The translations under genes were made by a program, and so were the position numbers. Below, piece by piece: positions 13,575 to 37,930 of a stretch of 64,000 nucleotides of DNA. The number at the start of each line of letters is the position of its first letter. Position 1 is the first letter of the stretch. The notes beneath the pieces are model-generated. The model did not search any database and was not told the DNA's origin. It saw nothing but the letters and a program-made list of their open reading frames with translations. Source of the stretch: Cenococcum geophilum (Eukaryota); NCBI GenBank assembly GCA_050273025.1, contig CP158635.1, positions 11,408,001-11,472,000 on the forward strand, written 5' to 3'.

Positions 13575-15186
13575 ATGCCGACCCTCGGATTCTTGAAGAA
13601 GAAGAGGACGAAGGACTCGTCGGGTTCCAGAGACTTAGACTCTCAAACGTCTCCTATCAAGGAAACAACATCGCCCGTGACACCCACAGTCTCTAAATCC
13701 ACCTCTGAGTCGCTGTTCGCGAGCAAGTCGCAGGACTCGACTACCGCATCGCAATCCACTCAAGCGTCGACGGCTCCACCAAAGTCCGCCGATCCCATGA
13801 ACCCCTCAGCATACTCCCAGCCGTATGCGACCCCGCAAGCTACTCCAGAACCTTATCAACAGTCTCAATACAACGTCCCTAGCATACAGAACCTCATCCA
13901 CCCGTCCAATACCACCTCTGGCCCTCAATCATACAACCAGCAGGCAAGGCAACAAAAGACCGACTCCGCAAATGGAGGTACCGTAACGCCTAGTGCCTCT
14001 TCCCAAGGGGGCGCACAGTCAGCTGTGAGGTCCACCAAAGGCAAATACACACTCAATGACTTCACAATCCAGAGAACATTGGGAACGGGCAGCTTTGGTA
14101 GAGTACACTTGGTTCAGTCCAAGCATAATCAGCGATATTACGCCGTCAAGGTGCTGAAAAAGGCCCAAGTCGTCAAGATGAAGCAGGTTGAGCACACCAA
14201 TGACGAGCGGCGCATGCTGCAGCAAGTCAAACACCCGTTTCTCATTACCTTGTGGGGAACGTTTCAAGACTCTAAAAACCTATACATGGTTATGGATTTT
14301 GTTGAAGGTGGTGAGCTGTTCAGCCTGTTGCGCAAATCTCAGGTTCGTAATTCAATGCTGGGCGCTCTGGTAACGTCTTGTAAGCTGATTCGCAGTAGCG
14401 TTTTCCTAACCCCGTAGCAAAGTTCTATGCTGCGGAAGTAACTCTGGCGCTCGATTACCTTCACTCAATGAACATAATATATCGCGACTTGAAGCCCGAA
14501 AATTTACTGCTGGATCGCCATGGCCATCTCAAGATCACAGACTTTGGTTTCGCCAAGGAGGTGCCCGATATTACCTGGACATTGTGCGGAACACCAGACT
14601 ATCTTGCTCCCGAAGTGGTTGCATCAAAAGGCTACAATAAGTCTGTCGACTGGTAAGTTCTTGGTCGAGACCCTCGAACGTCACATAAATGACAGCAACT
14701 TACTGTAACACCAGGTGGTCCCTCGGAATCCTCATCTTTGAAATGCTATGTGGGTTTACTCCGTTCTGGGATGGCGGATCACCAATGAAGATTTACGAAA
14801 ACATCTTGAAGGGTCGCGTGAAATATCCCCCTTACATTCACCCTGACGCTCAAGACCTCCTGCAGAAACTCATCACCCCGGATTTGACCAAACGGCTTGG
14901 TAACTTGCATGGTGGGAGCAAGGATGTTATGACACATCCCTGGTTTGCCGAAGTTACCTGGGAGCGGTTGCAAAAGAAAGATATCGATGCACCGTACGTA
15001 CCACCTGTCAGGGCAGGTGTTGGTGATACCAGTCAATTCGATAAGTACCCTGAGGAAACTGAAGCATATGGGCAAATGGGCGATGATCCGTAAGTAACCT
15101 TGTGGTTATACTTTCATACCACCAGCGCTTTCATCCACTAACATTTGGACTGTGATAGACACAAACACCTCTTCATGGAATTCTAG
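13575..15186 (+). CDS. pkaC1: cAMP-dependent protein kinase catalytic subunit
   Basis: [40 protein letters not shown]. Three GT-AG introns. Last exon HKHLFMEF*. Confidence 0.96.
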
Positions 15187-16551
15187 GCTATCCTTCATAG
15201 AGCTAATGCTTGCATGCAAAGGCCCTGTGTGGCGTGTTTTGGCGAAGTTGGAATTGTGTTTGTGATTACTCCGTCTGGAATAAACTCTCTTTTAAAATCA
15301 TACTGCTGGACCAAGCAGATTGAAAGGGGCTGCAGGAGAGTTGTGAAGGTTTCTGTGATATGGTTCAAGCTCTACACAATAGAGCAGCAAAATGGTGGGT
15401 CAGGGTGGGCTTTACTATCATGACTTTCTTACTTCTAGGGGCTGGTGGACAGTGGATAGGCTTGCTGGGGACCTGGTTCCTGGATTCATCGGTAGGTGGA
15501 ATGCTGTTATCGCTTGATGGACTTCTAACACAGCTATGTTGACTCTCGACCATTACCATTACAGTAATGGAGCGGACAATATGGACTTTACCTACTTAGC
15601 CTCTTCGTCTCTGTACGTGTAGCAATGATTTTAACGTCTCGTTACGTAGGCTATTAAACATTGCGGCGGCCGCGGAGACAAAAGAAAACTAAATCTCCCC
15701 CAATTATATCCCTTGTAACGCCAGAATTCGTCCACACGTTATTGATAAGGACCAGCCAATAAAATCAATACTGTTACGTGGCTTATAGGATATACTACGG
15801 TGGCTCAGTAAATGGGCTGGGTATATATGTAGACAAGTCTTAACAAGATTAACTAGTGGAGTATTTGCCCAACAGATTAACTCTGATTATATTCTAAGAA
15901 TCACTACAAAGAGAACTATCTACGGTAGGGACCTCGGGTCCTTAAATGCACAACCGTACGCCTAAGAAATCCCTTTGTACGTAATATACGCGTTACATAT
16001 ATTATGCGTACGTATAATCCATATCTCGCATATACTGCGTATATCATTATATAACGCTCTATAACTCGCCTACCACTCATTACATAGTTCTACTAGTATA
16101 GGATTACCATATTTAAAAGTATATATACTAAACCTTATTTATTGGTTATATCTTAGTAGTTAAAGACGGTAAGCGAAAGCCCTATATACTAAATCCTATA
16201 CTAAAGGTTCTATAGAACTATATTAGGAATATTAAATTACCTATAATACTTATAATTAATTATAGACTATAAAAACCCTTAGGTTAACTTAGATAGTCAC
16301 CGCTATATATCTAGTAGGCCTCTAATAGGTCTTCTAGTAATTCTTATATCTTTTCCTCTAGCTATATTTTTCCTTATTAAGGTTTTTTTAGGGGTTTAGA
16401 GTAGGGGTTAGATAGCTAGATTATATATATACGGCGGTAGACTAATAAATATCTCTCTAAACCCCTTCTAAGACGAGCCTTTAATAATAATTTCCCTCTC
16501 TATTATAAGATAATAGCGATTGGGGGCCGATCGCAAGAAGGGAGGGGGTAC

Positions 16552-16884
16552 TGTAAAGGATATTATCAGGGTTACCTTGGGCTGCCCTTATGGCAACCTG
16601 TCGATCAGGTAGCAATGACGTAACAGTTTCAAATCGTCGTCAGTATCGACGTCAGTCTTTCGCTACCTCATGTATATTAGGGCTCCTAGAGTCACCTTGA
16701 ATAGACAGACTTCTCATTCTTGATTTTGCGATCGACACAACCCTCGGATACCCCTTAGATGGTCGTCAGTTACGTGCCAAAGGCAAGTGCCTATAGTATA
16801 TAGTCTCCTCGATCCTAGAGGCCTTACCCCCTTAAGGATTCGCCTCCCCTATAACCTACCTTATTCCTACGATCACGCTTCACA
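16552..16884 (+). mobile_element. Probable 3' LTR with upstream polypurine tract, within a RIP-degraded block (~15700-17700)
   Basis: AAGAAGGGAGGGGGTAC immediately precedes TGTAAAG...TTCACA. TpA-rich degraded sequence on both sides. Confidence 0.6.
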
Positions 16885-17402
16885 GCTCCCTGCCTGCAAA
16901 GTCCCCTTATATTAACTCTAAACGGCCGTCGTACTAAAAAGCGGTATAAATTATCTGTGTAAGATCCTTTCTATTAGATCCCTCTATAATAAAATTATAA
17001 TCCTACTTTTATAGAGGCGTTTAAAAGGCTTAGATAAGCCTCTTCCTAAGCCTTATTTATAGGAATATTTATTAGAAAACTGAATACGTCTCTAAAGGAA
17101 TCCCTTACACTTTTAAGCTTAAAGATACCTTAATTAAGCTACCGCTACCGCTGGCGATAGCTTTAGTTTCTTCTTAGCGAACTACTTTATCCCTTGCATT
17201 GGTAATATAGTATTTTTAAATAGACGTTATAAAGTTTTATGCTAAACGGTAACCCTTATAACCTTATACTTAAGAGCTGCGTAGTCGGTTTAATGATTCT
17301 TACGTGTAATTTAAAGAAGTAGACGCTTCCAGCGTTGAGTAAGCTTTTTAGGCTGTCTAGGTCTTAGTAGAGATTTAAGCATCGATCGATTGTATTATAA
17401 AC

Positions 17403-17543
17403 CAGTGATATATTTGGAGTGGAGCGCCAGTTTACGTTTATCAGTTGTAGGTTTAGCGCTTTCCTGTGGTTGATAAACGTAAACTGGCGCTCCAACGGCG
17501 CTCCACGCCGGATCCACGCCGCTCCAGTCCAAATAGACCACTG
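17403..17543. mobile_element. Small hAT-like MITE with internal hairpin
   Basis: Ends CAGTGATATATTTGGA / TCCAAATAGACCACTG resemble the TIRs of the 6426-7549 element. Perfect 24-bp inverted repeat 17420-17443 / 17471-17494. No clean TSD. Confidence 0.65.
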
Positions 17544-19076
17544 TAATATAGGTAACGCGACGACTAACGCGGTATCTAGCCGCGATTTTAGTCTTCTCCT
17601 CCTCTACTTCTACTGCACTAAGGATTCCAGCTCTTTATATATCTGAAAGCTCTACTCTCGGCCTTCGATTTCCACTAATTTCCGTGCCAAACGAGCGTTG
17701 TATTGTAATGTAGTAAATAATTGAATTTGATGACGGTATTGCGATCGTGTGGTGTTTGCTCGCGTGTGCACAGACCAATATATTGGCACTGTATCTAGAA
17801 ATATATACAATTAGAATAGATTAAATTTCACCCTTTTGTAACCGATAAATCTCCGCGTCTATATCCAAATCTGATTCTTCTGATCCTTGATAGAAAGCAC
17901 TGGCAACGGCAGAAAGAAGAAAGAAGAAAGCAGAAAGCAGAAAGGTGGCCGAAAAGATCATTCACTTGGAGGAACAGGCCCAGAGGATGCTACACGTAAT
18001 TCAGCAAGAACGCGAGGAACAACAGATCGTCCTTAAAACCGCGCAGAAGGAGCTTCAACAGGTCAAGACAAATAGACTGCGCTGGATTCGAGGGACTCCA
18101 TTAGGTGTCTGGATTAGTTGTTCACAATGGCTACAAAGGAGAAGTGATATACAATATACAACAGCTGGTTTCCCTTGACCGTACGTCGTCCAGCTACGTT
18201 TGCACCCCGAGCCCTAAGCCTAGCCCGTTGCAATTCTGGCTTCGCGAGTAGTGCTAGCGGCTACTGAAATGTAATTTTATCTGACAACTGAACCCGATCG
18301 ATCACACAGCAAGTTCCACATCCCAAGGATGTTCACTGCCGGGGATCTCGATGACTGTTTGTGCAGGCCTGGTTGGAGGCAGCTGAACTGTGACGGGGGC
18401 GATAGGAAAGGACTAGGAGTGCGGCGAGCCACTGTAACGTCATGAAAAGTATTAGTGGCTTTTCTCTACGTAGGGGGATTATCGACTTAAGCGTCTTACC
18501 TTGTAGCTTAAAACCGTCTCGTCCGGCTCCGTGGTTCTAGTTTGCGTTCTCGGACCTGTACCATTGCCTGAGAAGTGCAAGAATGACAACACCGACGTCT
18601 GCTCCAATCAAGAGATACAGGATTTCCTGTGAGATAAGAGCGTCACTACAACAGAGTTGCGCTGTGAGACAGGCACATGAAAAGGGCTATCTGGACCCTC
18701 CCTGGCGAAAATTGACGAGCGGTTGGATTCAACGTAGTAAAGGCTGTCAGCCTGTCCCACACGAAATAAGTTCTGGTAAACTTACAAGGCCCAGTGCCAG
18801 TGCCTTGGTACTATCGGCACTATCGCTTAACCCGTTGAAATTGATCCTCATGTTATCGATAAGAGTCCGCCAATTAGGTTAGCTGAATTTAATGACTATA
18901 CTGGGAAATACAAAGCTATTGATTTCATAGTAAATTAATATATACGCTCAACCTTTGGAGTTGAGTCGCTCAATATCAGGTCTCCATAAATCGTCGTTCC
19001 TGCGGAATGGTATTTTACAAATACTGATGGTGGTGTAACTAATGGTTGAATTCTATATAGAGCACGCGTAGTCTTA

Positions 19077-19413
19077 CAGTCAAATCTCTTTAGTACGATA
19101 TTGGGTATATAACGATATCATTTGTATTACGATTTACACCCCTTGATCAAACCTTTTTTGGTGTAATATTACGATAATCTGACTTTTGACGATATCATTA
19201 GCACTTACCACCAATATCGGTATAACCAGTAGAGAATTTGTATGGAAGAGGGCCCTATTTGGCCCGCGAGGTAGACATCCTAAGCCTTTTTAGGTATTAA
19301 ACCCCACATTTTTCTGCTTATTCACCCCACACGTGACTCTTTATATAACAATACCATTGGTATTACGATACGCTCGGCCGAACAAACCGTATCGTACTAA
19401 AGAGATTTGACTG
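19077..19413. mobile_element. MITE, TA TSD, ~24-bp TIR (family also at 53123)
   Basis: TA|CAGTCAAATCTCTTTAGTACGATA ... TATCGTACTAAAGAGATTTGACTG|TA. Confidence 0.9.
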
Positions 19414-19533
19414 TAGTTCCGGTGTTGCGCACAGACCACTTCCTCTGAGGATCTCGACGGGTTAAGAGCAGTAATAGCCTCTTTGGGCATGCAGAGGAGC
19501 ACCGTCACTCGGACCTGCCTAGTATTTCAATAT

Positions 19534-22187
19534 TCAACATTCCTCGACGGCCGGGCTTTTTACGCCAGGCTCGTTGATTTGGTCCTGTTGGAACAATGGG
19601 GCGGCTAAAGAAAAGAAAACCGTTAGCAGTTGCGAAAGCAGAAGCAGGGGGACCGCATACTCTGACCCAGTGTAGAGAGCGTGAAGCTTACTTCCGCAGG
19701 CTGTTTCACGATACTCGTGCTTTCGCTGTCTATCTGAATAAACCAAGCTAGAGAGTCCGCAGCGGCGAGAGAGCCTGAGGCAATATCTACCACCATCCGC
19801 ATGTCAGACGCTAATGAACGACTTCAGGATCTGCGAAAGAGTTTGCGTACTTTCAAAACAGACTGAGACCGAATGCAATTTATTAAGAAGGATCAAGCGA
19901 TACATGCCAGTAGTCGGATTTCGAATGACGCTCATTCCGGCATCGGTGAGATAGAAGTCACGAACCATAAGATCGCCGATAGGTCTGACACATTTGACTG
20001 AGCACTTTGTTCCTTGTTTACTTGATGCGGGTGGAGTGACGAACCTCTGATATACGACTTGTTCTCCCAACCGTGGATATTGGAGGTATAGGATGAAGAG
20101 CTCTCGCTGCATTGCTTTAATTCTGTCTACAAACTCTTCCACTGCTACAATCCACGTAAGTATGCCAAAGGCCACCGCTAGTGTGGGGCGACAAACCTAA
20201 CATCGATAGGAACTCCAGCTCAAGTGCAGAGCACTTGATTTGTTGGACTGATTCCGCTCCGTCGTGGTCACCCTCAGCAACGCATAGGACGTCACCGAGA
20301 TTGGCGACTTGAGGATTGTCTCCACGCTTGATTGGCGTATCGTATTCGACTGTGTCAATAGTTAGTGTGCTGTAGCAATCAAGGATCTGCAAGGGAATAT
20401 CTGAAGATCAACCAGGATCCAACGAGCATTTGAATAAGTCAGATACTGTCGAACGATTGGCGCTAGATGCAGGCTGGCCAGAATAAACGAGTATAGTGCT
20501 GTTCAAAGTTCAAACTGGGTTGGATTTAAACGCTCGGTGGATTCTGGGCGATACCCAGAAAATTTCCTGGCAGACACCTGAGGGTAACAATGATAATGAG
20601 GTTTTACTCTGTACGAAGTATCGCGTCGCACTGGAAGACGACGGGTTGCAGTGAAGGACAAGCTCAGCATATTGTTGATAGATGATGCCAGTGCACGCCT
20701 CATGCAAAGTACTGCGAAGGTATCTCGTTGGGAGTGACTTGAAGTGGAGCAGTTGAAACGACTCAACTCGGCCTTGAGTGAAATGGTGTCCGTTCGCGAC
20801 GAAGCGAAGGCTCAAGAGGCTGTCGATGAGATCGCTTACGTCTCTGTACAAAGATTCTCAGCTTTAAGAGTAGATTGGAATTGTCTACGATTATTTACGT
20901 CTTCATGGCGAGGATCGACATAGACTCCTCACCAAAATTGGTACGTGAGGGATGAAGTAGCATGGAGCTGAGGCCCTGTTTCGCGTGATGTGCCGCCTGA
21001 AGAGCGGCGAGCTCATTGGCATAGTTCTCAAGACGGGCCAAGTCTAAAGGACGTAAGCTGAATGGTTTGGGTTTCTTCGGACTTAGGTGTACCTGTGGGA
21101 GCTAATTTCGTGATGTAGACTAACATAGGAACATTCGAGGTTGGTGAAGCTGCGTATATCTGGTATTCTCTATGACCATGCGGCTCAGCAGAGCAAATGA
21201 GAAAGCTGACTGGCAACACTAGCTGAAGGTCAGCGCTGACTAAAGAATGGCGGGGCGGAGGTTAATTACAAGAAAACCGAAGCTGCCATGAGTGCGGTCG
21301 TACATTGCCACGCATAGCTGAGTTTGACAGAGACGTGGATGGGGCACAGCAACAGCCAAGTATGGTTCGACCGCCGGCATCTTTGTCATCTAGCGTCTGC
21401 AGATCATTAAGTGACCCTTTAGGGCAGAGGAGTACGCGCTGAGTTGAGCCCGGTAACTGAGCATAGACTACAAAGTTCAAAGACCGTGCAGACATCCCAT
21501 CTGATGATTCAGTCTCTCGAGTTTCTGAGGCGTAGGCGGCTCGGCAGCCTTTAAGATTTGCTGCGAACCACTGGTAAATTTCGTCCAGCTGCGTGTGCAT
21601 TGTGTCGACTCGCTCGTGCACAATCTTGCCATGATGGCTAATTCCGCGATGTTAGGACAGCATTGTTCCTGCTGATTCCATGAGGGCAAATCTCACCGGT
21701 TGAGAGCTGATAACGCAAGATCGAGCCCGTTTATCTGTGCGTTGAGCATTGTCTTCAACTTCTCCAGACCTCCGCCTTCAGTTGTCCAGCGGAGCTTTTT
21801 CCAGTTTTTACGAACCTCCTCTTTCCACCTCTCTCCTATTCGTGCGCTTGCCTCGACCGGATTACCGCTGTCTAGCTCCATGTACTTGCCCACAAACCCC
21901 TCTAAATAGGTCAATGTGCTTCGACAATTGGCAACGATGTGGACTAAGATGGTGTCTCCATCCTCGGCCATGTTTGGCTTGCCCTCACTCTGAAGGAGTC
22001 CATTCTCTGACCGCTCGGGCAAATCTCGGGCGAGCAACTTCAGAGACTCGCTTAGAGTGTAGAGAAGATTTTGGACCTCCACGAACTCTGCTGGAGCTGA
22101 GTTCCGTCCCGAAGTGAAGGCTCGTCCCAGAGTATAAGCAATCTTTGCTAACATGAGGGCATCGCCAATAGAAATTGAGAATACCAT
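19534..22187 (-). CDS. Multi-exon protein with a fungal HeLo-like/SesA-type N-terminal helical domain and an unrecognised C-terminal region
   Basis: Exon 1: MVFSISIGDALMLAKIAY...SAPAEFVEV...NCRSTL...WKKLRWT...LSALNR. Downstream ORF pieces (21621, 21219, 20851, 20392, 20175, 19746) join in frame via GT-AG introns with plausible branch sites, ending SPAVEEC*. Confidence 0.7.
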
Positions 22188-22607
22188 CGTGAATATCGAG
22201 AACCGAAAAGAATCTTAGTGTGCAATATGCGACTAGAACGCTTGAGAGCACTTGGACACCGCCGAGGGATAGGATGACTGATTGGAAGACTTTTGAAATC
22301 CAGACTAGCCTGTCAAACTAGGGTCCGTGCACCTTTGTCGATACCGTGACACCACTCGTTATCGAAAAATATCAAACAAAGTCGCTGGCTCTGGAAAGTG
22401 CTGGGAAGACCAAAGGAATAAGAAAATGGCGCAGAGTAGTAACGGGCTGAGCCCCTGAAAAGCAGGCACTCTTTCACGGGCCTGTGCAAGGCGCCTGCGA
22501 ACCACTTTGAGGAGGCAACGAGGCGCAGCAAAGTGGAATTCTCATAAGTATGTTTGCCCACCGCAGGCGGACGCATCCAGAAAACTGTACCGTTCCGTCT
22601 CCCGACC

Positions 22608-25600
22608 ATGGCGCTTGCGTCATATCGTGAAGGGCTGAACTTTGAGCGTCTTCCCTCTGGCATTTTCTTCAATGAACTTCGAGCTGCCTTTGTTGACCGA
22701 CCGGAGCCCACGGAAAATCTTGGCCCCAGCAATTCCGCTCCCTTTCCGACCTTCCGAGCTTCGCGTGCACCGGCACCGACAACAACAAAGGAGCCAGGGG
22801 TTCTGCGCTGCCTCCCGCTACTCGAGGTTTTTGTTGATGTCTCTGTAACTTCAACAGTAGCGAGAAGTAGCCTAACACAAACCTTCTCCAACCCTTCCGA
22901 CATTGCCATCAAGGAAGCTAGCTACACTTTTCCGCTATATGATGGGGTTGCTGTTACAGCCTTCCGTTGCTATATCGGCAAAGAAAAGGCCCTTGAGGGC
23001 CGAATCAAGCCCAAGGAGGAGGCGAAAGCGGAGTTCAACAAGGCAATCGTGGACCAACAGGTCGCTGCGTTGCTTGAAGAGCATACACCAGAAGTGTTCG
23101 AGACACGTTTGGGCAACATCCCTCCTTGGACAACCGTGAAGGTTGAAATTACCTACATTAATGAGCTCAAAGCAGACATTGGAGGCGAAGGAGTCTTACT
23201 GACAATTCCTACCTCCGTTGCGCCGAGGTATGGTGCACCACCATCTGGACTCTCGCCCGACACAACTCTGGGCGGAAAAGGACTCCGGATCACTGTTGAT
23301 GTGACTGCAACGATACCTATCCGCAAGCTGGAAAGTCGTACGCATCCCATCTCTGTTGAGATAGGGGCTGCACGCTCGTCATTACCCGCGCCTACGTTTG
23401 CCTCGCTTGCTTCTGCGCCCACGGATATAGAATATGATCCCAAAAAGGCTCGCGCAACTCTTTCGGATCGTACAGCGACGCTTGGACGAGACTTTGTCCT
23501 TCTGATCCTTGCAGAAAGCTCCACGCTCGTGGCATCTCGCGCCCTTCTTGAAAAGCAGCCAGGTCACTCGGCCATAATGGTCACGTTATGCCCCAAAGAT
23601 CTCTTCTCATCCCACATATCTACGGCAGAATTTTCAGGTGAAATCATTTTTGTGGCTGATCGCTCAGGATCCATGGGTGGTCGAAAAATCGAGATGTTGC
23701 GTGACGCGTTGGCTGTGTTCCTAAAGAGTTTACCTGAGCGGTCCCACTTCAACATTTACTCCTTTGGCTCCACTTTCTCCTCGCTCTGGGAGAAGTCGCA
23801 ACCGTACTCTCAGGATAGCCTTGACTCTGCCACACAGCACGTGGGCCAATTTTTTCTTGCTAACATGGGCGGGACCGAGCTTTTGCCGGCCTTGCAGCAG
23901 GCAGTACAAAGACGAGTGGATAACTTGACGACTCAAATAATCCTACTTACCGATGGCGAGGTCTGGAACACCGAACGGACGCTGCAATTCATTCAGCAAA
24001 CTCGAACAGTGTCCAAGGGAGCCGTTCGTTTCTTCGCGCTTGGTATTGGCGATGCCGTTTCTCACCGTCTCGTAGAGGGCATTGGGCGAGATGGTGGGGG
24101 ATTTTCCGAGATAGTTGCCATCGATGCACAGGGTCGCTGGGAATCGAGGGTAATTCAAATGCTGAAAGGAGCCCTTATGCCCGCGAGCTGGGAATGTGAG
24201 GTACATTACTCCGGAGAAGGATTAGCAACTCAGACTGTGCCTCAAGCGACCGCTAGTGTTTTTGCTGACCCATTTGCGGTTTGTCCTTCTCGACCGACAT
24301 ATATTCAGGCACCATTTCGCATTCCTCCCTTGCACCCATTCGCTCGCTCCTCCGTCTTCTCCCTTTTCGATAACGACAACAGCCCTGATATGGAATCAAT
24401 TACTATCAAAGGCGTCACACCCAATCATCCCGTTGTCTACGCCAAGTTGATCGTGGAAGTTTGCGAGCCTACATTTCCAACCATCCACTATCTCGCGGCA
24501 AGGGCGGCGATGATGGACTTGGAGAGCGGTAAAAGCTGGCTTCACTCATCCCAAGCCGTGGGTGGCGAGGTCCCAGGATCGAGCTCTTTGGATACGTCTG
24601 TGAAGGCCGAAGCTGAACGCATTGGGATACAATGGTCCGTGACGGGAAAATGGACCAGTTTCGTGGCAGTTGAGGAGACCGACCATGTCACTACCCTCAC
24701 AAGACGCTACAAGCCTAGGCGCTCCGAACTAGTGGACTTGACAAGACCTTGGGGCGTAAAGCGCGCGCGTGATGACGACCTTCACCTCCCTAATATGAGC
24801 CCTCCCCCATGCTCTAAAAGGCCTTCCTTGTTCACACACTCTATATGGTCTTTCCCCCCCCCACACTCTACAAGGTCTTCCCCCCCCCACACTCTAAAAT
24901 ATCTCTCTCTCTCAACTGCCCTACAAAGCCTCCCGCTCCTCCACTCCCTGAAGAGTCTTTCAGTCTTCCTAAAATGCATGGATATTCACTTTCACTTTTG
25001 ACTCCACCAGAGGTAACATTTGGCCTGACTTACCCGGATCGAATGCAGAACGCGTCTGCGGAAATTATCAGTCAAGCACAGCAGGATGGAGAAGTTAGCA
25101 CGAGTTCAGGTGGGCAGTTTAACGACCTTGAAAACTACCTTCAGGAAGAAGAGGACCCATGGACACTGCGTGCACCCCTCGATCTGCCGGCTCAACAACA
25201 ATCATTCGAGTATATACCGCGCTGTGAGGATTTTTCTAATTGTGCGGTAGGCAGTTTGAATTCGCCGACCTTTAAAAACTCGATAAGCGGCGATTTCGAT
25301 ACCTGTGGAACACTCTCCTCTGTCGTTTCCGAGCGGTCACTCCAGGGGCGTACAGACTGTGCCAGAGCAGTCATAGTCTCTGACCTTATCAAATATCAAG
25401 ACTATCGCGGCGCGTTTTCCCTTGGTGGAGATTTTGCTTCTACGAGGACTGTGGTAATGGCCAAGTTCTCTTCATTGTCTACAGCTCAACTCCGTGAAAT
25501 TGTGGAAGCAAAGCCATCTTTCTCAAAGTCTGTCATTGAAGGGAGATTGGACCATAGGCTCTTTGATACATTGATCGCCATCGCTTACATTCGCACACAA

Positions 25601-25909
25601 TTCCCTGAGTTAAGGGAGTTATGGGAGCTTGTGATTCAAAAGGCCGAGATATACGTGGACCAATTCTTCCACGACAAAAAAGACTGGGAGCAAGTTATCA
25701 CTTGGCTCCAGGAAATGCAGGAGGCCCCGCAGGCCGAAGGGCCCGCTATAAAGGGTGGTGTCGTTAAGAATGACATGCCCCGCAACAACTCACCCGCGGA
25801 GTATGTCTCCACCACTTCCACCGCGCTCGTTGTCAAGAGGTTTCCCCTTTTACTAACTCAACCCGTAGTCCAAACCGCTTTACTTGCCCCCACACTAAAT
25901 GCAATATAA
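22608..25909 (+). CDS. VIT-vWA domain protein (VWA5A-like), frameshifted near 24880
   Basis: VIT motifs LTQTFSNP, YTFPLYDG, ALLEEHTPEVF. vWA MIDAS DRSGSM, GGTE, LLTDG. C-terminal module LIKYQDYRGAF...WELVIQKA lies in a second frame. Confidence 0.88.
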
Positions 25910-27610
25910 CCTTTGCCTCCGAAAGCAATGCAACCCAGCACTCCCGCGATTTCCCGGATCACCGATTACGTTGTCCTGCATCGGGGGCAACAAGGGATTT
26001 CGGAGCAACTACCATCTAAGCCGGCATATACAAAGGCACCACCCCGACCAAGCGGGTGGGCTATCTGATTCTGCCAAAAAGGGACATGATCCTCTTGCAG
26101 AGAGAAAGAATAACAAAGAAGAGAGACGGATATAGCTATGGATAAAACCTCGCTATTGTTCTGCTTGCATAGAGGTTAGCAGAAAAAGCGAGGTTCAACA
26201 TAGAGGATTAAGGAAAGCTCTATCAGATCTCTCACCAAATACTGTTTGTAAACCACGCGACAGTGAGGATTGGAAAAGGCGTCCTCGTGCGCCAAGGACT
26301 TCATTTAGTTGCAGCGCGCGCTAAATACCGCCCCGTAGAAAGGATAAGCGTTTTGGGCCCCATCTAGAGCAACTCAACTCTAAGGATTGAGCGTATATAT
26401 CAATTTCTTATGGAATTCAAGCAATATTAAAATATTTGAATATTCGATCACGGCTATTGATTTCCGAAGCTCTGACTGGTTCATGCTTGTCGATACCAGA
26501 TGGACCCGAAACGGCGTGTTAAGGGATAGAAGGAACGAGTGAGCAGCTTCACCTATGATAATGCCTCTAGTCTTAACGTACAATAATTGAACTTTGGTTA
26601 AGCTACGACTAATTAAAAGGTTTTGTAAGCTCCGGATAATTAACTTCTATTAGCCTCTCTGGTTTTTCTATTTTTCCCACGAAATCCGCCAGTGTCTTAG
26701 GGTACCTCCCCCCTCCGTGCACGGTCCCACTTAATGCACACCAAAATCAACTATTGCCAAGCCTCGATTTGAGGCCGTAGAATCACATAGAGTTGATAAA
26801 ATCGTCTATATTTTTGATGTAGTAATCTACTAAGTTTCCTCATCCGAATGAGCTATTGTATAAGATTTTCCGACCGTAGGAAGTTGTTAAATTTAGTGTT
26901 GAGCGCGAGTAGCCCTGGATATAACCACTCCATCTATCTCCTTAATTGCGACCCTTAAAATAACAATAAGAAATTGCCTAGAAGCTTATTTATTCCGTCT
27001 ACCTCTTCTTATTAGCTTAAGGTCGTTTTAAAGCTATAGATTTACTACGCGAGCGTTTATAGCCTCCTCTCTCTAGCGGCGTTTTTTAGCTACCTCCTTC
27101 TCTCGTTAAACCTTGGCTTGTATTCTAGCCTGCTTCCTCTATACTATCGCAAGCTGTCGTTCTTCCTTTATAAGTTGCTTCTAAATCTTCTTATCCTGTC
27201 GGCGTACCTCCTCTTAGTGTTATAGTTGTTTGCGCTCCTCTTAAAGCTCTATTACTTGCTGGATCTTTAAGGGGCTAAAGAATATAGCCTTACAGTTAGT
27301 TTCTGCACGTAGTTTATTAAAAAGAGGCTTACTATAAGCTCTCTTCTTCTTCTTATTACTAAACGCCTTTTAGAGGCCCTTATTTTCTAAGCGGAGGAGA
27401 GTAATATTAGTGGTAAGCTTAAGAACTGTATTTTTAAGCTTTTTAGCCTGCGGCTCTATATAACCTTATTAACTACGTCTTGTAGAAGCCTGCACACCTT
27501 CCTCCAATTGCTTACTAAGAGGGCTAAGGTATTTAAGTCCCTTAATAAGGGCCAAGAGGCTATTTTGCCTTACTTTTATTGGGTCTTAATAGCGCTAAAA
27601 ATAACCTCTA

Positions 27611-29666
27611 CATCGGGAAAATATTCGCAGGCTGGGTTTCAAGTCGACTTTGTTAAGCGCGTTTCGCGTAATTGACATGCAGTTGACCAACTTGACACAT
27701 TCAAATGTTAAATGACACGCAGTTAACCAACTTGACACATTTAAAAGTCAAATAACACGCAGTTAACCAACTTGACATATTTAAAAGTTAAATAACACGC
27801 AATTAACCTATAATTGACTAACTTAACATATTTAAAAGTTAAATAATACGCAATTAACCAACTTATACATTCCTTAATATGCAATTAAGGTAATATAATA
27901 TATTATTTTTAAGTTATATGCTAATTGCAAGAGGCTCTGCACGAAGCTCTACACAAAGCTCTACACGAAGTTCTACACGAAGCTCTGCACGAAGCTCTGC
28001 ACGAAGCTCTGCACGAGGCTCTGCCAGAAGCTCTACACGAAGCTCTGCACGAAGCTCTGCACGAGGCTCCGCACGAAGCTCTGCACGAGGCTCTGCACGA
28101 AGCTCTGCACGAGGCTCTGCACGAAGCTCTACACGAAGCTCTGCACGAAGCTCTGCGTACAGAGGCTCTGCACGAGGCTCTGCACGAAGCTCTACACGAA
28201 GCTCTACACGAAGCTCTACGTACAGAGGCTCTGCACAAGGCTCTGCACGAGGCTCTGCGCGAAGCTCTGCGTACGGAGGCTCTACACGAAGCTCTGTACC
28301 GGGTCCCCGCTATATTCCGATAGCCTACACGTGCCTCTGCCACGTATACCTCTGTAGCCACCTTATTTTTTACCCATCTTTCCTTACATTCTCCCTACCT
28401 AGGGAGGCACCAGAACGGCAGCTAGTAGAGGACTGTCGCCAGAACTAGATAACCGTCGCCAGAACCAGACGACCGTCGCTAGAACCAGACGACCGTCGCC
28501 AGAACCAGACGACCGTTGCCAGAACCAGACGACGACCGTTCGAACGACCAGCCAGCAAACACCACAAACAATTTAATTAATTGATTGATCGAATTAAACC
28601 AGAGCTTTAATATCGGCCCGTCACCAAATCGAATTAAGACCTCCTAGGGAGGCACCCCAGACGACTACCGTTTGAATGTACAGCCAGCGAACGGCTATAG
28701 AGAACGATTCGAATCAATAAGAGCCTTCGATCAGGCCTACTCCTCCCCCGAATTGAACTAGACACTGACGCAGGCAGGCAGGCAGGCAGGCAGGTAGGTA
28801 GGTAGGTAGGTAGGTAGGTAGGTAGGTAGGTAGGTAGGTAGGCAGACAGGTAGGTAGGTAGGCAGGTAGGAGAGAACCGTCGCCAGAACCAGAGACCGTC
28901 GCCAGAACTAGACGACCGTCGCCAGAGCTAGATGACCGTCGCCGTCGCCAGACGACCGTCGCCAGAGCTAGACGACCGTTACCAGAACCAGACGATGACC
29001 GTTCGAACAACCAGCCAGCGAATACTACAAACGATTTAATTAATCGATTGATCGAATTGAACCAGAGCTTTAATATTAGCCCGTCACTAAATTAAATTAA
29101 GGCCTCCTAGGAAAGCACCTTAGACAACTACCGTTTAAATATATAGCCAGCAAACGATTTAAATAAAGCAGAGCCTTTAATTAGGCCGACCCCTCCCCTA
29201 AATCTAAATTTAACACTAATATAGGTAGGCAGGCAAGCAGGTAAATAAGTAGGTAGGTAAGTAGGTAGGTAGACAGACAGGTAGGCAGGTAGGTAGGTAG
29301 GTAGGTAGGTAGATAGGCAGGCAGGTAGGTAGGCAGGTAGGTAAGTTAGTAGGTAAATAGGTAGAAGAAAACCATCGCTATATTATATTAAATTATCTAA
29401 AATAATAATTTACCTTACTAGCCTTATAAACGGCTTTAAAGTAGCCTTTATTATCTAAAATTATAAGTTATATAGGTTGCGCAGGTTGTGTAGGTTGCGC
29501 AGGTTACACAGGTTACGCAGGCTATGCGCAGGCTGCGCGCAGGCTGCGTGTCAAATGAACTCGACATAGGCTGGTTTATCAAGTTGGTTAATGCCCTTAA
29601 TGGCCCGCCAACGACGCCAACTTCTAGCAGCTGAGGTCATTTACAAGGGACAATATTTTGCCGATG
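27611..29666. mobile_element. Non-autonomous TIR element packed with tandem repeats, nested in the Pogo transposase
   Basis: TA|CATCGGGAAAATATT ... AATATTTTGCCGATG|TA. Flanks rejoin as transposase TGLNPLN(L)EVI. Confidence 0.8.
27928..28298. repeat. 12-bp tandem repeat (GAAGCTCTGCAC variants)
   Basis: Directly visible; produces the HEAL/SARS/RASC low-complexity ORFs. Confidence 0.9.
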
Positions 29667-30515
29667 TAGATTAAGTGGATTTAGCCCAGTATCTGCCCAC
29701 CTACTAAGTATATTATTTCTAGTAAAGGCCCTATTATAGGCAGCCTAAAATAGACGGAAGAAATCGCGTTTTATAATAGAAGAGAGGCCCTAACTCTTAT
29801 AAATAAGATTATTAAGTTCTTAGCTATAATACGTGCTAAAAGAAGAGAAGAGGCTATAGTTAGTAGGTTAAATAAGGCGGAAATATAGTTACTAATATCC
29901 TATGCTATTAACTCTAGTTAAGGAACTTTATATTAATATAAGATCCGTGCCTATCTAATATTAAGAGCCTCTAGGATCTTCTGTTTCTAGCCTTTTTCTT
30001 TATTTCTATATTAAAGAGGTTAGTAAGCTATAAGAATCCTATCTCCTTATTCGCCTAACCCGTTATAGTAGATAAGAAAAAGACCCGGTATTATTTAGGG
30101 TTAAAATCTTAAAGCTAGGAGTCCTAAAGGTTGCTAGAAATAGCTTAATAAATTAGGCTTAGGGGGAGGCTTATTCCGTTAGCGCAGATACTTATAATTA
30201 CTGTAATCCACTTTCTATTACCGTCTTAACTAGCGCTAAGAAGCTTACCTTAAACTGCTTCTAACTTAGTATAGATTCTCTTGCCCTTATTAAGTACCCT
30301 AATAAGAAAGCCTTTTTTATCCATATTATATATATTATGCACTTTAATCTCATACTTTTTAAACTTCTCCCCTAATAACTCGTAAAAGAGCTTGTATTAA
30401 TATAAATTATTAGCCCTTTTGCGGGCTATATTAGCCGGGGCTAAATAGCTTAATTTTATCTTATCCTTATGGCGCTTAATAAACCGCGAAACCTAGTTCT
30501 TTCTAGGCGTCATTC

Positions 30516-33500
30516 TGTTAGCGACTTAGTCAATCGAGGCACGAGTACGGCAAGAGGGACGCGCAAGCCTGTACGATTGGTAGTCTATAAACGAAGATCT
30601 AAAGCTAGAGAAAGGAAAGGAGAAGAAGAGCAGCGCCGGTCGAAGTAGGGTTCTTTTATGCGGTCCTCTAGTCACGTAACCGCGAAGTTCTGCCAAGTTC
30701 TGCTAGTGCCGTAATATTACCCCCCCCTCCGCAAAAGCCTGCCCTTAGGCTTTATAGTCCGTATTATGCTTATAGGGCATTCTTATCTTTATATTCTTCC
30801 GGTAGCTTATTATCTTCGCTATACTAGCACTCTATTTACTTGTCTAGGTACTTTAGGGGTTCTGGTTTATTAGGGTAGCGGTTATAGAATTCTTAAAGCT
30901 TATAGGGACTGCTAATAAAGTTCCATATTGGGTACTAGGTAGGATCTGGGTTATAGCCTTTTTAACTAACGCGGTACTTTAGCGTTTTCCTTACTAGTTT
31001 ACAGGCTAGTACTTCTTTAATTTCCTATTTGTTGTCGCCATTAACTTAAATTGGTAGGGGAGGTTCGTTCTTTTGTTTAGGCAATAGGTTGTTTATAGCT
31101 TTCCATAGCTTATCTAGCGAGAAAATAGGGTAAACCTTAATCGAATCTGGGAGCTTTACTTTGTATAAGTTACCTATCTTCTTAAGGACTTTATACGGTC
31201 CCGCTATCTAATAGTTTAGCTTATAGCTAGGCTATTCCGTCTTCTAGTTCTTTATTATAACCTAGACTATATCGCCTATAGTAAAGTCAGGTTCGCGCCT
31301 ATGCTTATTTACTTGCTATTCTATTAATTTTTAGGCCTTTTTTAGATTTATATAGGCTACTGTCTAGGCTTCCTCTAAGCGCTTGGCGTACTACTAGGCT
31401 TCCTTATAAGATAGTTTCTCGCGTACGGTCTGTGGTCCTTCTGGTCTATCCTAGTTAAAGCTTATTTAGGGTAAATACCCTATTTCTAGTTAGATAGGTG
31501 CAAATTCTATAGAGTTATAGGGTAGGGTTGCCTGGGCGTAGTTTATTAGGGGTAGTAGTTTGCCCTAGTTATCCTAGAAGTAGTTAATAAAAGGCCGGAG
31601 TCTCTAATCTAAATATTAATTTATAATCTCCGTCTAGCCGTCTATCTGGGGGTAGTATGCTATAGAGAGCTTTAGCCTAATACCTAGGATCTGGGTAAAC
31701 TCGTTCTAGAAGGCCGATATAAATTACGGGCTATAATTGGATATAATAGTATCTAGTGGTCTGTAAATACGGTAGACGTAGTAGATATATAGTTAGGCCG
31801 CCTCCTTAGTATTAATATTCTTATAATAGGGAATTAAGAACGGGCGCTTACTAAAGCGGTTAACTAGAATTATAACTATATTATATCCGTCGCGGTCTAT
31901 TAGTAGCTTATAGAAGTCTATAGAGATATACTGCTAGGGGCGGTTGGGTATTAGGAGAGGTTTTAATAGTCCTAGGGTCTTATTTTATGGAATTATAGAT
32001 CTACGGCAGCTATTGTAGTTCTGTATATAATAATTAATATCTATAACTATTCCGGGCTAGTAGTAGCGGTTACTAATAATCTTATAGGTTTTATTTTTTT
32101 TAGGGTAGGCCGTAAAGACCTAGGTATGAGCTTTGGCAATAAGCTGGGTCTATAAGTTCTGTTTTTTAGCTACTACTAACTATTTCTAGTGCTTAAGTAG
32201 TCCGTTTTTAAGGGACTATAGGCTAATAACGTTCTTTACCTTTTTACGGTATTCCTATAGAGAGGGGGTTGTTTAGTTAGCCTGTAGTAGTTTATTAATA
32301 AGGTTAAGTTTAGAGGAGTTAATAGGATATATCTTGGCGCCTAAGGAGTCCGTGCTTAATTCTGCCCGTATCTAGGGGTTAAGGTATTTTGGTTATAGTA
32401 GCGTCTGGGTCTATAGTAAGATCTTCGCAGCCGTCTAGTTATCTAGATTTTACTTACGCCTTATAAGAGCGTCCGCACGGTTTATAGCGCCTAGTCTATA
32501 TATAATTAAGAAGTTAAACTAAGATAGGGTATCCGCCTAGCGTGCCTGCTAGGCTATAAGGGCCTTGGTTATTATAAAGTATTCTAGGGCCTTATAATCT
32601 AAAACTACCTTAATCGGCTTAGGGGTTCCCTCTAGCTATATATGCTAGTGCTAAAAGCTAGAGATAATAGCCAGCATTTCTTTATTATAGATGTAGTAAT
32701 TTAGCTTAGCATTTATTATAGTCTTTAAATAGTATATAATAGGGTGCCACTCTCCATCCGGTTACTTCTAGGAAAAAATACTAGCTATTATGCCGTCTAA
32801 GGCATTAGTTTCTAGTATTAAGGGCCGTTCTAGGTTAAAATAGGCAAGTAGGGGAGTTAATACTAGCCGTTTTTTAAGCTTATTAAAGGCCTGCCTATAT
32901 ATAGCGTTAAAGTGGAAGGGCTGGTCTTTTCTAGTAAGACGGTTAAGAGGCTAGGCAATTTTGTTATAGTTTTTAATAAAGCATTAATAGAAGTTATAAA
33001 ACCCTAAAAAGGATTATACCCCCTTTACGGTCCGTAGGGGTGCCTACTAGTTAATTGCGGCCGTTTTCTCTAAGTCGGTTTTAATTCCGTCTATACTAAT
33101 AATAAAACCTAGGTACTTTATACGCTTAATACTAAACTCTAACTTCTTAATATTAACCTGGAGGCTAGCCTTATGGAGCCGTTATAGGACTTTATAGATA
33201 TGCTCCTCGTATTTTAGCTCGTTTTTAGAGTAGATTATAATATTATCTAAATAGGCCGTATAGAAATCGTTAAGGTAGTTAAAGAGTACATTATTTATAT
33301 ACCGCTGGTACGTAGCTAGTCCGTTAGTTAGTCTAAAAAGGGAGCACTTTATATTTATATGTTCCGTAATGGGTCTAAAATATAGTAAGATCTTTAGACC
33401 TAGGGTCTATTCTAATTTAGTAAAAGGCCTAGTAGATATTAAGCTTTATAAAGACCTTAGCTTTACTTATTTAGGCTAGAGTTTTATTAAGTAGGGGTAG

Positions 33501-36367
33501 CGGATAGCGATCCTTATAGGTTATATTATTTAGCTTATAGTAGTTAATATAGAAGCGAAGTCCTCTATTTAGCTTTTTAATAAAGAGAATAGGTAAGGTA
33601 AAAGGGGCTTAGCTAGGCTCAATAAAGCCCTTATTTAGGTTATTAATAAGATACTGCTTTATAGCCTACAATTCGGTAATAGACTACTTATAGAGGGGGC
33701 TAAAGCTAAGGGTGTTTTCTTTACCCTGCTTAATCTTAATCTTATAGTTATATAGTCAGTAAGATAGAAGTATATTAGACGCTACTTTAGAGAATATATT
33801 CTTAAATTTCTAGTATTAATAGGGCAGCTTTTATTCTACTAGTTCCTTATCTATAAGCTTACTTTCTTATCCGCTAAGCTTATTTCCCTTTTCCTTAATT
33901 ATTTAATTAATTTTATATAAGCTTGTTGTAAAGGTAACAGTATTAGGCTAAATTAAGTTCTAGTAGAATTCTACGGCACTAATACAGCAGATATTAACTA
34001 GTGGGAGGTTTGCTGGTTTCCTTACAGCCGTTTTCTAGACCGTATTTTACGGTCTAGGGTTTATAATCTTTCTTAGCTCCTATTTTATCTTCTATAGGTT
34101 ATCCCTCTAATCTATTAGTTTAGTATAATATCTAATATCCCTTACTATTCTTTGTAGCTATATAGGGCCTAAGCTCTCTATAGGGGGCTTTTCTAGGTTA
34201 TTATTAACTTTCTAGGTCTTTAATATGGGTAGCGTAATATAGGTAGTTTAGGGGCGATATAGTATACGGATCTGTTGCGAATTAAGCTGTATATCTTTTT
34301 TAAAGGCCTAGTCCCTATATATAGCATTAGCCTAGTAAATAGTATTAATCTAGGGCCGTATAAGGTTTTCTATTATAATACTAATTTCTTTTATAAAGGA
34401 AGGGGTTAGGGGTAGAGTTTTGGGCTAGGTAAGCCGTTTACTCCGTACGTTAAGCTATAAGCCTAAATAGGCTAGCTATTTTCGCCTTAAGATTATATTA
34501 TAGCTACCTAGGTCCGTAATAAGGAAGGGGGCGTTATACTACCTTCGTCCGTTAATATAGAGGTAAATCTATAAGATAGTCGTAATAGGTGGTTCTATTT
34601 GCCTATTATACCTATAAATAGGAATTAGTTTAGGTAGTTCTTTAATAGGTGTATTTAGAAAGTTAGCTAGCTTTATGGTATACTAGGTATCTATTAAGGT
34701 AAAGGTATTTACTCTAAAGTTAGCTAAAGTAGAGGTTAAAACTTAGTATCTATTACGGAATAAAGTATAAGGGATAGTGCAGCTTTTTTTACTAATTAGC
34801 TAACCTAGATTAACATCTAACATATTAATCCCTTTTAACCCTAGAGAGGAGTCTTCCTCTAGGGTTCCTCTTTTTCTGACTCCGCGCTATCCTCTTAAAT
34901 TAATAGAACCTCGTCCGCTTTCGCGTTTATTAGGTAATCCTTTATATAGTGACCTTTTTATCCGTAAGAGAAGCAAGCTCCTTAATTACTAAGGGCCTAT
35001 ATATGGGGGTTACTATACGTAGGCCGAGTATTCGCTGGACCTATAGTAGGGCTAGCCGCACGGCTGGCTGCTAAATTGGTGGTAGGCTATATAGGTAGTG
35101 CTACGGGGGTTACTAATCGTGCTAGGGTATTACGGGCCGTTCTTATATTGCTTATAGTCTAATTTAAAGGGTTTCTAGCTTTATACCGTTTGGCACATAC
35201 CTTAATTCGGTAGAGGCCTTAGTTAATAGCTGAGCACTAGTCCGTAAGTTCCTTTAGCGTTTATATAATAATAAAAACTAGTAGTATGGCTTGCTGTAGG
35301 TCTAGGGTAAGCTTATTAAATAGGTCTAGTATTAGATCTTCCTAGGGAATTTGAGCCTGGCCGGCTAGGTGTAGAAAGCGGGTCTAAAAGGCTAAGAAGG
35401 TCTCTGTTGTTTTTATATTTAGGCTTTTATAATTAAGTCGAGCGTTTTATACTTTAAAGGGGTCCTTATAAATAGAAGACAGGTAGACGATTATCTCTTC
35501 TTTAGAGAGGAAGGGCTCTGCCGAGTCCTATACGTACCGCGGACATAGGTATGTCTATATGTCCCCGCCAGTACGGCTGAAGATATAGGCTATTTTAGCC
35601 TAAGTGGTAGGGAAGTGGTCCGTATTAACTTTGAGCTTATTCTGTAATTAAAGCTTCTAATTATTAAATATAGGGTCGGTTCCGTCTATAAGCAATAGGG
35701 GGTCCGTGACCTTTGTAGACTATAATAATGCTAATACTATACGTTGGGCTAGAGCCTTAAGGACTGTAGTAAGTCTCTAGGTGTTTAATAATTCCTTACT
35801 AGGCATAGGGGGTTCTCTAGCTTTAAGTAGCTCTTAAAGTTGTTTAATTTTAGCATTAGCTACTGCGAGCTCTACTTAGGAGTTTGAGTTAGTTGCTGTT
35901 TCACTATTAGAGGTATTTAAGGGTCCTACGGCTGCTTTACCGGCTGCTGTATTTCTTAGCATTATGGTACAGTTATTAGGGTAACCTCTGGTAGGATTCT
36001 ATAGGGGTTCTGGTTTATGCGTATTCTATAGGTCTTATTATTCTTTTTTATTCTTCTAGTTTTAGTAATATTCTTTAGGTCTAATTCTATGTTCTATTCT
36101 AGTTCGTGGTCCATAAATATATTTAAGTTCCTTTTTAGGAAGAAAGGGTAGTTAAGCTTTAGATAATATTAGCGACTTAGTTAATCAAGACACAAGTACG
36201 GCAAGAGGGACGCGTAAGCCTGTATAATTGGTAGTCTATAAACGAAGATCTAAAGCTAGAGAAAGGAAAGGAGAAGAAGAGCAGCGCCGGTCGAAGTAGG
36301 GTTCTTTTATGCGGTCCTCTAGTCACGTGACCGCGAAGTTCTGCCAAGTTCTGCCAGTGCCGTAACA
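30516..36367 (-). mobile_element. Full-length Ty3/Gypsy chromovirus-type LTR retrotransposon, RIP-inactivated
   Basis: 201-bp LTRs 30516-30716 and 36167-36367. 5-bp TSD CATTC. Polypurine tract next to the left LTR on the minus strand. RT YLDNI (from YLDDI) ~33240. Chromodomain remnant EIKEVLACKL...YRVS*KGYNPDPT*YP ~30930-31025. Confidence 0.93.
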
Positions 36368-37930
36368 CATTCTCAAGATCTTAAAGGTGAAATTTCGCAC
36401 CATTTAAGGTATAGGAGGTAGGCTACGTTTAGTAAGAAGATTAATATACCCAAGAAGAGTCCTTTCCTGCTATATTAATAGAAGAGATTTTATTTCCGTC
36501 GCATTCTCTCTGGCGCGAGTAATCTGCCGATAACGCCGCGAAAGCGTAGTACGATTGACATTGAATTCTTTGGCTGTCCGAGTGTAATTAGGAGGATCTT
36601 GTAGTTCCAATGCAGCAAGAGCGGCGTCAATTGGGTACATTTTGATTGTATACGATAGAGTTGAATTTTTGGTGATTTTGGATTTTGGTGTGCATTGAGT
36701 GGGACCGTGCACGGAGGGGGGAGGTACCCTAATGAACGGAAGTAGATGGAATTTCGCCTAAGTCCTGTTAACGAAGCAATAAAGAAGCAACAAAGCAACA
36801 TACTATCTCTCTAGGTCCTAGAGGCCACGAACATTCCCTGTAAGACCTGTAGATATAGCATCTACCCTTCCGGACAGGGTATGCGGCAGGGCTTTATGCA
36901 GAGTAACCAGGGTGGGGTCACTCCTCGCTCCACAACGCCATGGAACCAGCCAGTTCCTCCCACCGCCAAGTGGATGACGGTGACGGCTCAAATGAAATTT
37001 GTGGATAAAAAAGTCATGACTTACAATTCCAAACACTATACATATACCAAGATAGATTCAGGGTTATTAGATATTCTGCTCTACTTCGGTTTGGATTGCA
37101 GTATTACCACCTCCAACATGATTCACGTGGATAACCTCTCCCTGGTTCTAGTGACGGAATATAGCTGAGCGGTAGAAGGTTGTAAGTAGGCTTATCTGGA
37201 GTGAAACTGACAGCTAAGCCTCACATACGGCTGTCTTCAGCCTTTTCAACTCGTAGGCCACGGGTTGTAGGCTGATTGTTCACGCACGATAAGGAGGGAT
37301 ACTAGGAAGGTATCTGCATAAGGACTAAAATTAGTAAAGAGAAAAGTCCTACTCGCCATCAATTTAGCTCTGGAATAAGCCTCAAAAGATCTTTACATGC
37401 TAAATAGATTTGTGAAAACATGAGTTTGCGCGTCATAGATCTTCGATCAGCTAGTGGTCAAGGACCGCAGCAGAGATTAGACGAGTCAAATCGCGAATGA
37501 GCCAATAAATAGCTACATCTCTGTTGGATCAACACGTTTTGTAACGAAACAGGCTCTAATCTCCAACCGTTAGTAGGACCATTGTCTAATCAAAGCGCAA
37601 GTGCGCCCTGCGGGAAGCCGAGACTTAGGCAGAGTGGCTGAGCAGCAAGTCCACTTCCAATCGGAGCTTCACATAGCCTCAGCCTTGCACTTCAACAGTC
37701 TTTTAACGACAGCGACCCCTTTTAACCTCAAACAGCCCTCTCAGCTCTTCTCTCTTATGGAGAATCTGGAGAAAACCCTCTGCGTGATAAGAATACATAT
37801 ATCCGTTCTTCTCTGATGGAATGCGTCTTCTGACCAGTGCCGGCGGCAAGCACGGTTGGAATATGACACTGACGGCATTACAACGACTATCGAAGCAACA
37901 CCACATCCAGGAACCCCACAGCTCTCAAAA

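Follow-up and report, generated by a model that had tools for sequence, protein, structure and literature searches.

A head-to-head gene pair of a VIT-vWA protein and a helical-bundle partner in Cenococcum geophilum: a conserved two-gene module with a possible role in stress or defence

The two genes and their products

This study concerns two divergently oriented genes in a 64,000-nucleotide stretch of the genome of Cenococcum geophilum (GenBank contig CP158635.1, positions 11,408,001 to 11,472,000 of the forward strand; hereafter the window, in whose positions coordinates are given unless stated otherwise). An initial annotation made from the sequence had described them as a HeLo-like/SesA-domain gene and a VIT-vWA gene that might form a non-self or defence module. 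The start codons were confirmed at 22187 (minus strand) and 22608 (plus strand) with 420 bp between them, and this spacing together with divergent stranded RNA marks 22188..22607 as a bidirectional promoter region. Our results show that the pair has been inherited and duplicated together and is transcribed divergently from one short promoter that keeps a Crz1-like motif. Its linkage as a conserved module is near certain, and the pair probably acts as one stress or defence unit. The genome that we scanned comprised 178 Mb in seven contigs, with the window on contig C1; the nearest named homologues of the window pair belong to Dothideomycetes.

The plus-strand gene indeed encodes a VIT-vWA protein, with Pfam matches above cut-off to VIT (PF08487, E 8e-34) and VWA_3 (PF13768, E 2e-27). 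Its reading frame spans 22608..25001 (797 aa; VIT at ~22824-23156, vWA at ~23640-24110), and the family profile matched PARP4 (E 8e-63) as well as ITIH4 and ITIH1. The MIDAS, an adhesion site that depends on a metal ion, is intact: its DxSxS motif (DRSGS) lies at 23658..23672, and the residues D, S, S, T and D are invariant in all 51 aligned family members, the window protein included. The annotated start of the gene held but the end at 25909 did not, since the frame stops at 25001 and the rest is a second frame past a frameshift. This frameshift is located at a duplicated poly-C unit (24852-24903) in a hypervariable low-complexity linker (24790..25350). The window strain carries a C-terminal helical domain (CTD; 25379..25696, CTD profile match E 7e-19) out of frame. 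Further downstream (25801..26126), the RNA contig X6 and tblastn with P0014 and P0136 revealed an intron (25801-25868) and then a tail that resembles a C2H2 finger, in which the frame changes a second time near 25985. The tail (25869-26126) is present in P0136 and in P0014, where zf-C2H2 scores just below cut-off, and not in the reading frame of C3, one of two paralogs of the window gene that also occur in pairs in this genome.

The frameshift is probably real in this strain, because a DNA contig (X2, possibly from the source strain) and the RNA contig X6 match the region without gaps; given these matches, an assembly error is an unlikely cause. The CTD is in frame with the vWA domain in L017, L018, L021, L040 and the C3 paralog. 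L017 and L018, two conspecific-level loci that are 96.5-97.3% identical to the window over the pair, have a single open frame through it. Loss of the CTD in the window is an allele defect and no difference of the family. The VIT-vWA gene of the other paralogous pair, C2, had lost 2 bp right after the core relative to L040, as judged by sequence comparison. Both frameshifts sit at the linker start in simple repeats, the poly-C unit (window 24790-25350) and a CT dinucleotide repeat (L011:4300-4950), and they possibly represent a slippage switch or decay.

The minus-strand gene, here called the partner, is intact and encodes 646 aa in nine exons (19623..22187; exons 22187-21697, 21637-21270, 21218-21093, 21043-20899, 20843-20608, 20349-20197, 20144-20045, 19984-19851 and 19810-19623). 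The model was built from homology, GT-AG conservation and, in part, RNA: all eight GT-AG pairs are conserved in both L017 and L018, intron 2 (21219-21269) and the exon-1 end at 21697 were seen in RNA, and the other introns were inferred. The gene stood as annotated except for its 3' end, which moves from 19534 to 19623. Across 642 columns the protein is 42% identical to P0288, its spliced C3 paralog. Intron 5 (20350-20607) measures 258 nt compared with 40-60 nt for the others, and L017 and L018 carry 125 extra bases somewhere within the partner gene region. A partner subfamily of ~1,330 aa (P0218, P0219, P0240) has long insertions and a long C-terminal extension.

The fold of the partner was read from AlphaFold2 models of two homologues, P0157 (predicted local distance difference test score 81.5) and P0288 (81.1). 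In both, a helical bundle and its stalk precede three beta-rich units. In the window, the N-terminal four-helix-bundle domain and the helical stalk occupy 21697..22187, with the bundle beginning at the extreme N-terminus of the protein; by resemblance the bundle belongs to the SesA/HeLo-like superfamily. Units 1, 2 and 3 have the approximate limits 20981..21480, 20090..20980 and 19700..20090, those of units 1 and 3 being taken from the secondary structure of the models. In unit 1, the order of strands and helix is PH-like and a Cys..FxCxC..His cluster forms a possible zinc site, with its cysteines conserved at 99%, 98% and 98% and its histidine at 85%. Unit 2 adopts a PH-superfamily fold (RanBD/EVH1/PH) according to VIA-align on the homologue models: it matched a RanBP2 Ran-binding domain in one model with Z 11.8 (root-mean-square deviation, rmsd, 2.8; 119 aligned) and in the other with Z 11.7 (rmsd 2.7; 119 aligned), and numerous PH/EVH1 matches were obtained at Z 8-11. 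Neither model had a Foldseek match in the PDB at E<=0.001, and a solved-structure profile search with the partner family gave nothing significant.

The HeLo-like/SesA N-terminus proposed initially may stand as a resemblance: the domain is helical, 13 of 16 aligned partner members match Pfam SesA weakly (E<=1), the window partner staying below the cut-off, and one homologue, P0222, passes it (26.7 bits). The partner has no NLR domain: a Walker A motif was found in none of 46 full-length partners nor in the window model, and Pfam gave no NACHT or NB-ARC match. A UniRef label reading 'NACHT-NTPase N-terminal domain' concerns the bundle only. Neither gene has a gasdermin, S8 or CHAT protease domain according to Pfam. 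In the P0157 model the bundle matched MLKL (Z 10.9, rmsd 2.4, 100 aligned) and the plant coiled-coil NLR proteins Sw-5b (Z 10.9), MLA13 (9.0) and Rx (8.7). A complex prediction with residues 78-640 of the C3 VIT-vWA protein, residues 212-640 of its partner and Mg (bundle and CTD excluded) scored 0.00, with alignments unused and an uncertain partner fold, and was counted neither way.

Linkage, transcription and setting of the pair

The scanned genome contains four bundle-domain genes and four VIT genes, and three of each are arranged in head-to-head pairs with ATG-to-ATG distances of 420, 420 and 425 bp. The remaining bundle and VIT genes (C5 and C6) are solo and lie in gene-dense regions; C5 faces an RRM-domain-like gene, as read from the sequence, and not a VIT-vWA gene. 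C5 (L013:7640-10000) has the same N-terminal bundle as the partner (hhalign 100%, E 2e-39); its middle is long and disordered, and its C-terminus is conserved but of another kind. It appears to represent a conserved family that is uncharacterised (P0243, P0244, P0250). Profile comparison of the three beta units of the partner with each other and with the C-terminal parts of this solo family detected no homology (probability <=3%).

Linkage in other fungi was scored from the partner side. A metagenome scan yielded 48 loci, of which 26 were informative (at least 800 bp upstream) and the other 22 too short. An opposite-strand VIT-vWA gene was present in 25 of the 26 informative loci, 276-962 bp from the tblastn edge, and the lone exception (L053) had its best score to the solo C5 type. 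The 25 paired loci include several near-duplicates, and the promoter test described below used 18 non-redundant metagenome loci. In all five annotated genomes from which both proteins were retrieved, they bear consecutive accessions (Zopfia KAF2184897/8, Mytilinidion KAF2805582/3, Lophium KAF2489480/1, Clohesyomyces ORY07930/1, Diaporthe KAL1880746/7), which shows adjacency and not orientation. Because of this adjacency in 25/26 metagenome loci and 5/5 genomes, the expectation that homologues might prove unlinked elsewhere, which would have spoken against a module, fails. Further members of the partner family came from Orbilia, Dactylellina, Xylaria, Fusarium and Penicillium, for which family presence was recorded.

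Trees of the two genes have six of 15 splits in common (random mean 0.24, maximum 3), with a Mantel r of 0.74. No third recurring gene was found among the flanks of pair loci. The vWA of the C2 pair groups with that of Lasiosphaeria, a Sordariomycete (support 100/99), and is 66% identical to it versus 43-44% to its own paralogs. Transfer or hidden paralogy may account for this position, and horizontal transfer of the whole pair is a candidate explanation on these sequence comparisons. The C2 pair (L011:4638-9500) has a GC content of 0.564 versus 0.47-0.52.

Stranded RNA reads from another strain (X21) covered both genes on the expected opposite strands and at similar depth (~17-95). Taken together, adjacency and divergent stranded RNA support a linked, co-transcribed two-gene module, as had been suspected. 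In X22, a set of contigs presumed to be RNA and bearing the same species label as X21, PKA had a depth of ~140-160 and the pair was uncovered (13001-28000 compared), which could reflect presence/absence or silencing of both genes in a different isolate. Two further runs, X23 and X24, shared almost no sequence words and were left out.

A motif, GGCTG[AT]G, was found post hoc from the intergenic DNA of the pairs. It occurs at 24 sites in 15 of 21 loci, compared with 3.0 in dinucleotide shuffles (maximum 7). Among held-out loci, some of them close kin of the discovery loci, 7/11 had the motif versus 8/36 other upstream regions (p ~0.004). The window promoter contains one such site, GGCTGAG at 22445..22451 (plus strand), predicted by motif comparison to be a Crz1/CrzA element (calcineurin-dependent response element, CDRE)-like motif, and GAGGC-type sites at 22512 and 22520. 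Excerpts from the literature give the Crz1/CrzA element as GAGGCTG (PMC2873923), G[T/G]GGC[T/A]G[T/G]G (PMC2818617) or GGAGGC(G/A)C(T/A)G (PMC6942403). The published GAGGCTG, chosen after our motif had been seen, occurs at 10 sites in 8/21 loci against a shuffle value of 1.4 (maximum 7). Enrichment was weaker for three further published variants and absent for G[AT]GGCTC. Control of the pair by Crz1 is a lead rather than a result, because the window has one site and C3 has none. In L032, L034 and L035, an inverted repeat resembling a miniature inverted-repeat transposable element (MITE) lies inside the bidirectional promoter (5348-5753) and lengthens it to ~950 bp.

The pair occupies 7.3 kb of unique DNA within a repeat-rich interval. 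The initial annotation had tied it to an island of transposable elements, which was not borne out: the C2 copy lies beside housekeeping genes, as read from the sequence, and the flanks differ between lineages. The island setting of the window pair is incidental. One strain-variable flank is a 10-kb repeat block (26697..36732) with 64-nt inverted repeats at its bounds and a 197-nt direct-repeat pair inside; it is absent in L017 and L018, both of which retain the pair, and L017 otherwise retains both flanks around the missing block. Tandem arrays of 12-nt and 8-nt units lie within the block at 27900-28310 and 28740-29400, and the 12-nt array region had high coverage in RNA and DNA runs. On the other flank, outside the module, a MITE-like repeat with 26-nt terminal inverted repeats (19075..19415) has 40 scored copies at 88-100%. 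Next to it, the mostly unique DNA of 17800-19000 gives rise to a weak transcript from the minus strand, seen in X21 reads and the X6 contig; a clear open reading frame is lacking. We rejected the pair as cargo of a terminal-inverted-repeat element because the 55-nt inverted arms around it are copies of an old dispersed repeat; consistent flanking repeats were not found around the pair in eight other loci.

Possible functions of the pair

We hypothesize that the VIT-vWA protein is a calcium-stress-induced controller and the partner a membrane-acting effector, the two forming a defence or regulated-cell-death pair; this is our leading reading, which we hold tentatively and at less than even confidence. 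A rise in cytosolic Ca2+, caused by wall or membrane damage or by attack of an antagonist, would induce both genes through calcineurin and Crz1. The PH-like units would bring the partner to a membrane or small-GTPase site, and the VIT-vWA protein would bind it as sensor or controller, with the CTD and the long linker setting the threshold. Once activated, the N-terminal bundle might act on the membrane in the manner of HeLo and MLKL domains, and the hyphal compartment would be killed or sealed off. The pair would work without an NLR, amyloid or protease, and it would not be a polymorphic het locus.

The three head-to-head copies, the broad linkage, the agreement of the trees, the divergent transcription, the promoter motif and the match of the bundle in one model to MLKL and plant NLR proteins speak for such a controller-effector pair. 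Copy-number turnover and cross-class kinship as in C2 are a pattern typical of defence genes.

Several observations weigh against it. The window bundle reached 15.5 bits against Pfam SesA, with a cut-off of 26.3 (E 0.02). The MLKL match lies in the range that helical bundles reach by common arrangement, according to the tool, and ranked below IncA and dynactin; MLKL was not among the 50 matches listed for the second model. Helix 1 reaches no more than moderate hydrophobicity (the best 19-residue hydropathy averages 1.05, n=67) and has an invariant acidic residue. The closest genomic relative of the bundle is the solo C5 gene, in a gene-dense region and with no VIT neighbour. Tree agreement is partly due to species kinship, the C3 promoter lacks a motif copy, and in X21 both genes had about PKA-like depth. 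The CTD is lost in two of the three paired VIT genes of this strain while the window partner is intact. Compared with L017 and L018, both genes are under purifying selection: omega (dN/dS) is 0.18 in the partner (0.04-0.16 across its bundle) and reaches 0.25-0.38 in the core of the VIT-vWA gene, dS being 0.05-0.09.

A more far-reaching form of the controller-effector reading is rather unlikely. It would make the pair an NLR-free cell-death or immune system wired to calcium and calcineurin, in which a VIT-vWA protein of the VWA5A/PARP4 type would sense or gate by way of its MIDAS and CTD and set free an MLKL-like bundle borne by tandem PH domains; the cassette would be mobile between lineages, and slippage in the linker would yield CTD-less alleles that tune it. 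Such alleles are of interest because the CTD of Dictyostelium Vwa1 has been proposed to be autoinhibitory (excerpt of PMC10539598). If true, it would be the first case of a dedicated partner genetically linked to an intracellular VIT-vWA protein.

The pair could instead form a damage-response adaptor complex induced by Ca2+ and Crz1, serving membrane or wall repair, septal plugging or trafficking without death, which we regard as a serious contender of fairly low probability. The bundle and stalk would oligomerise or tether, the PH units would bind lipids or GTPases, and the VIT-vWA protein would be the scaffold. The promoter motif, the PH fold and the strong purifying selection on the bundle fit such an adaptor, as does the solo bundle relative, which looks conserved and non-immune. 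A vWA-annotated gene, MGG_03941, appears among strongly induced Crz1 targets in PMC2873923; no link with this VIT-vWA family emerged, and a nitrogen regulator and an aminotransferase are listed beside it. A bacterial VIT-vWA protein is described as stress-induced and protective in an excerpt of bioRxiv 10.64898/2026.05.23.727404. However, three paralogous pairs in unrelated flanks, the cross-class sister of C2 and the repeated linker frameshifts fit core repair less well, and X22 shows PKA and nothing of the pair.

Co-regulation through a shared bidirectional Crz1-type promoter, with both genes serving the same response and neither binding nor controlling the other, appears improbable. What is conserved is the head-to-head geometry and the common motif, and solo members exist in both families (C5, C6), which speaks for co-regulation. 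Strict one-to-one retention through duplication and relocation would, however, exceed what a shared promoter normally keeps.

Slightly less probable still is a heterokaryon-incompatibility or allorecognition locus, at which alleles of partner and VIT-vWA would have to match and the hypervariable linker would be the specificity region. Linkers of near alleles are non-alignable despite cores that are 93-96.5% identical, truncating alleles exist, and X22 points to possible presence/absence. Low-complexity linkers vary neutrally too, however, and the seven distinct core alleles are star-like with no divergent haplogroups among them, in a sample that is small and partly metagenomic. Allelic divergence of this het type, raised by the initial annotation, is therefore not supported: purifying selection (omega 0.18-0.38 at an unremarkable dS) and the lack of divergent haplogroups argue against it.

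A ubiquitin or proteostasis adaptor, with the partner as substrate receptor or substrate, is the least probable alternative. The VIT-vWA-linker-CTD layout recurs in Dictyostelium Vwa1, which associates with components of SCF and with the F-box protein FbxwD (as excerpted from PMC10539598), but Pfam finds no F-box, RING or WD40 among partner homologues, and FbxwD is no relative of the partner.

Whichever way the controller-effector reading turns out, a cassette of two genes with a defined promoter motif would lend itself to inexpensive tests in a laboratory fungus.

Comparison with known systems

A description of the pair was not found in open-licence PubMed Central (PMC) and bioRxiv texts; subscription papers and bioRxiv supplements lay outside this search, and large cluster surveys could tabulate the pair. 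In fungi, cell-death pathways often take the form of two-gene sensor/effector clusters (excerpt of PMC10197012). The het-S/nwd2, HELLP/PNT1 and gasdermin/protease clusters resemble the pair in having two tightly linked genes, one encoding a HeLo/SesA-like bundle at the N-terminus or a different putative membrane effector and one encoding a multidomain putative controller (excerpts of PMC10197012 and PMC12881547). In contrast to these clusters, the pair has no Walker A (0/46) and no NLR, protease or gasdermin Pfam match, its controller would be a VIT-vWA protein, and the C-terminus of the partner consists of three beta-rich units instead of a short amyloid motif. Unlike the NLR-amyloid-HeLo arrangement of het-S/nwd2, the neighbour is a VIT-vWA gene and not an NLR gene in 25/26 informative loci; no scan for amyloid motifs was made. 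If the bundle kills, the pair would add a new architecture, linked to calcium signalling, to the few fungal cell-death clusters.

MLKL and plant coiled-coil NLR proteins share with the partner a four-helix bundle at the very N-terminus, as matched in one model of two. The partner differs from them in lacking a pseudokinase or NB-ARC, and action on membranes would follow by analogy. SesA, HeLo-like and MLKL bundles have been placed in one superfamily, kinship being no proof of a death function (excerpt of PMC9815663). Solo fungal proteins with a bundle and tandem PH domains (C5; PH_FT-type ESM Atlas clusters) have a homologous N-terminal bundle, and an Atlas lead points to PH_FT_N/PH_FT_C clusters (0.81-0.86). 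They differ from the partner in that the C-terminal units show no detectable profile homology and in that C5 faces the RRM-domain-like gene.

Excerpts of PMC10539598 and PMC12540739 describe VIT-vWA proteins of the intracellular type (VWA5A of humans, the vault module of PARP4 and Vwa1 of Dictyostelium) as widespread and little understood. The VIT-vWA protein of the pair resembles VWA5A/BCSC-1, PARP4 and Vwa1 in its VIT domain, vWA domain with MIDAS, long linker and CTD. In contrast to these, it has a dedicated neighbouring partner (none is mentioned for them in the same excerpts), no PARP domain and, in the window strain, a CTD that is out of frame. A partner welded to a VIT-vWA protein across several fungal classes offers a handle on VIT-vWA binding and on the roles of MIDAS and CTD in this family.

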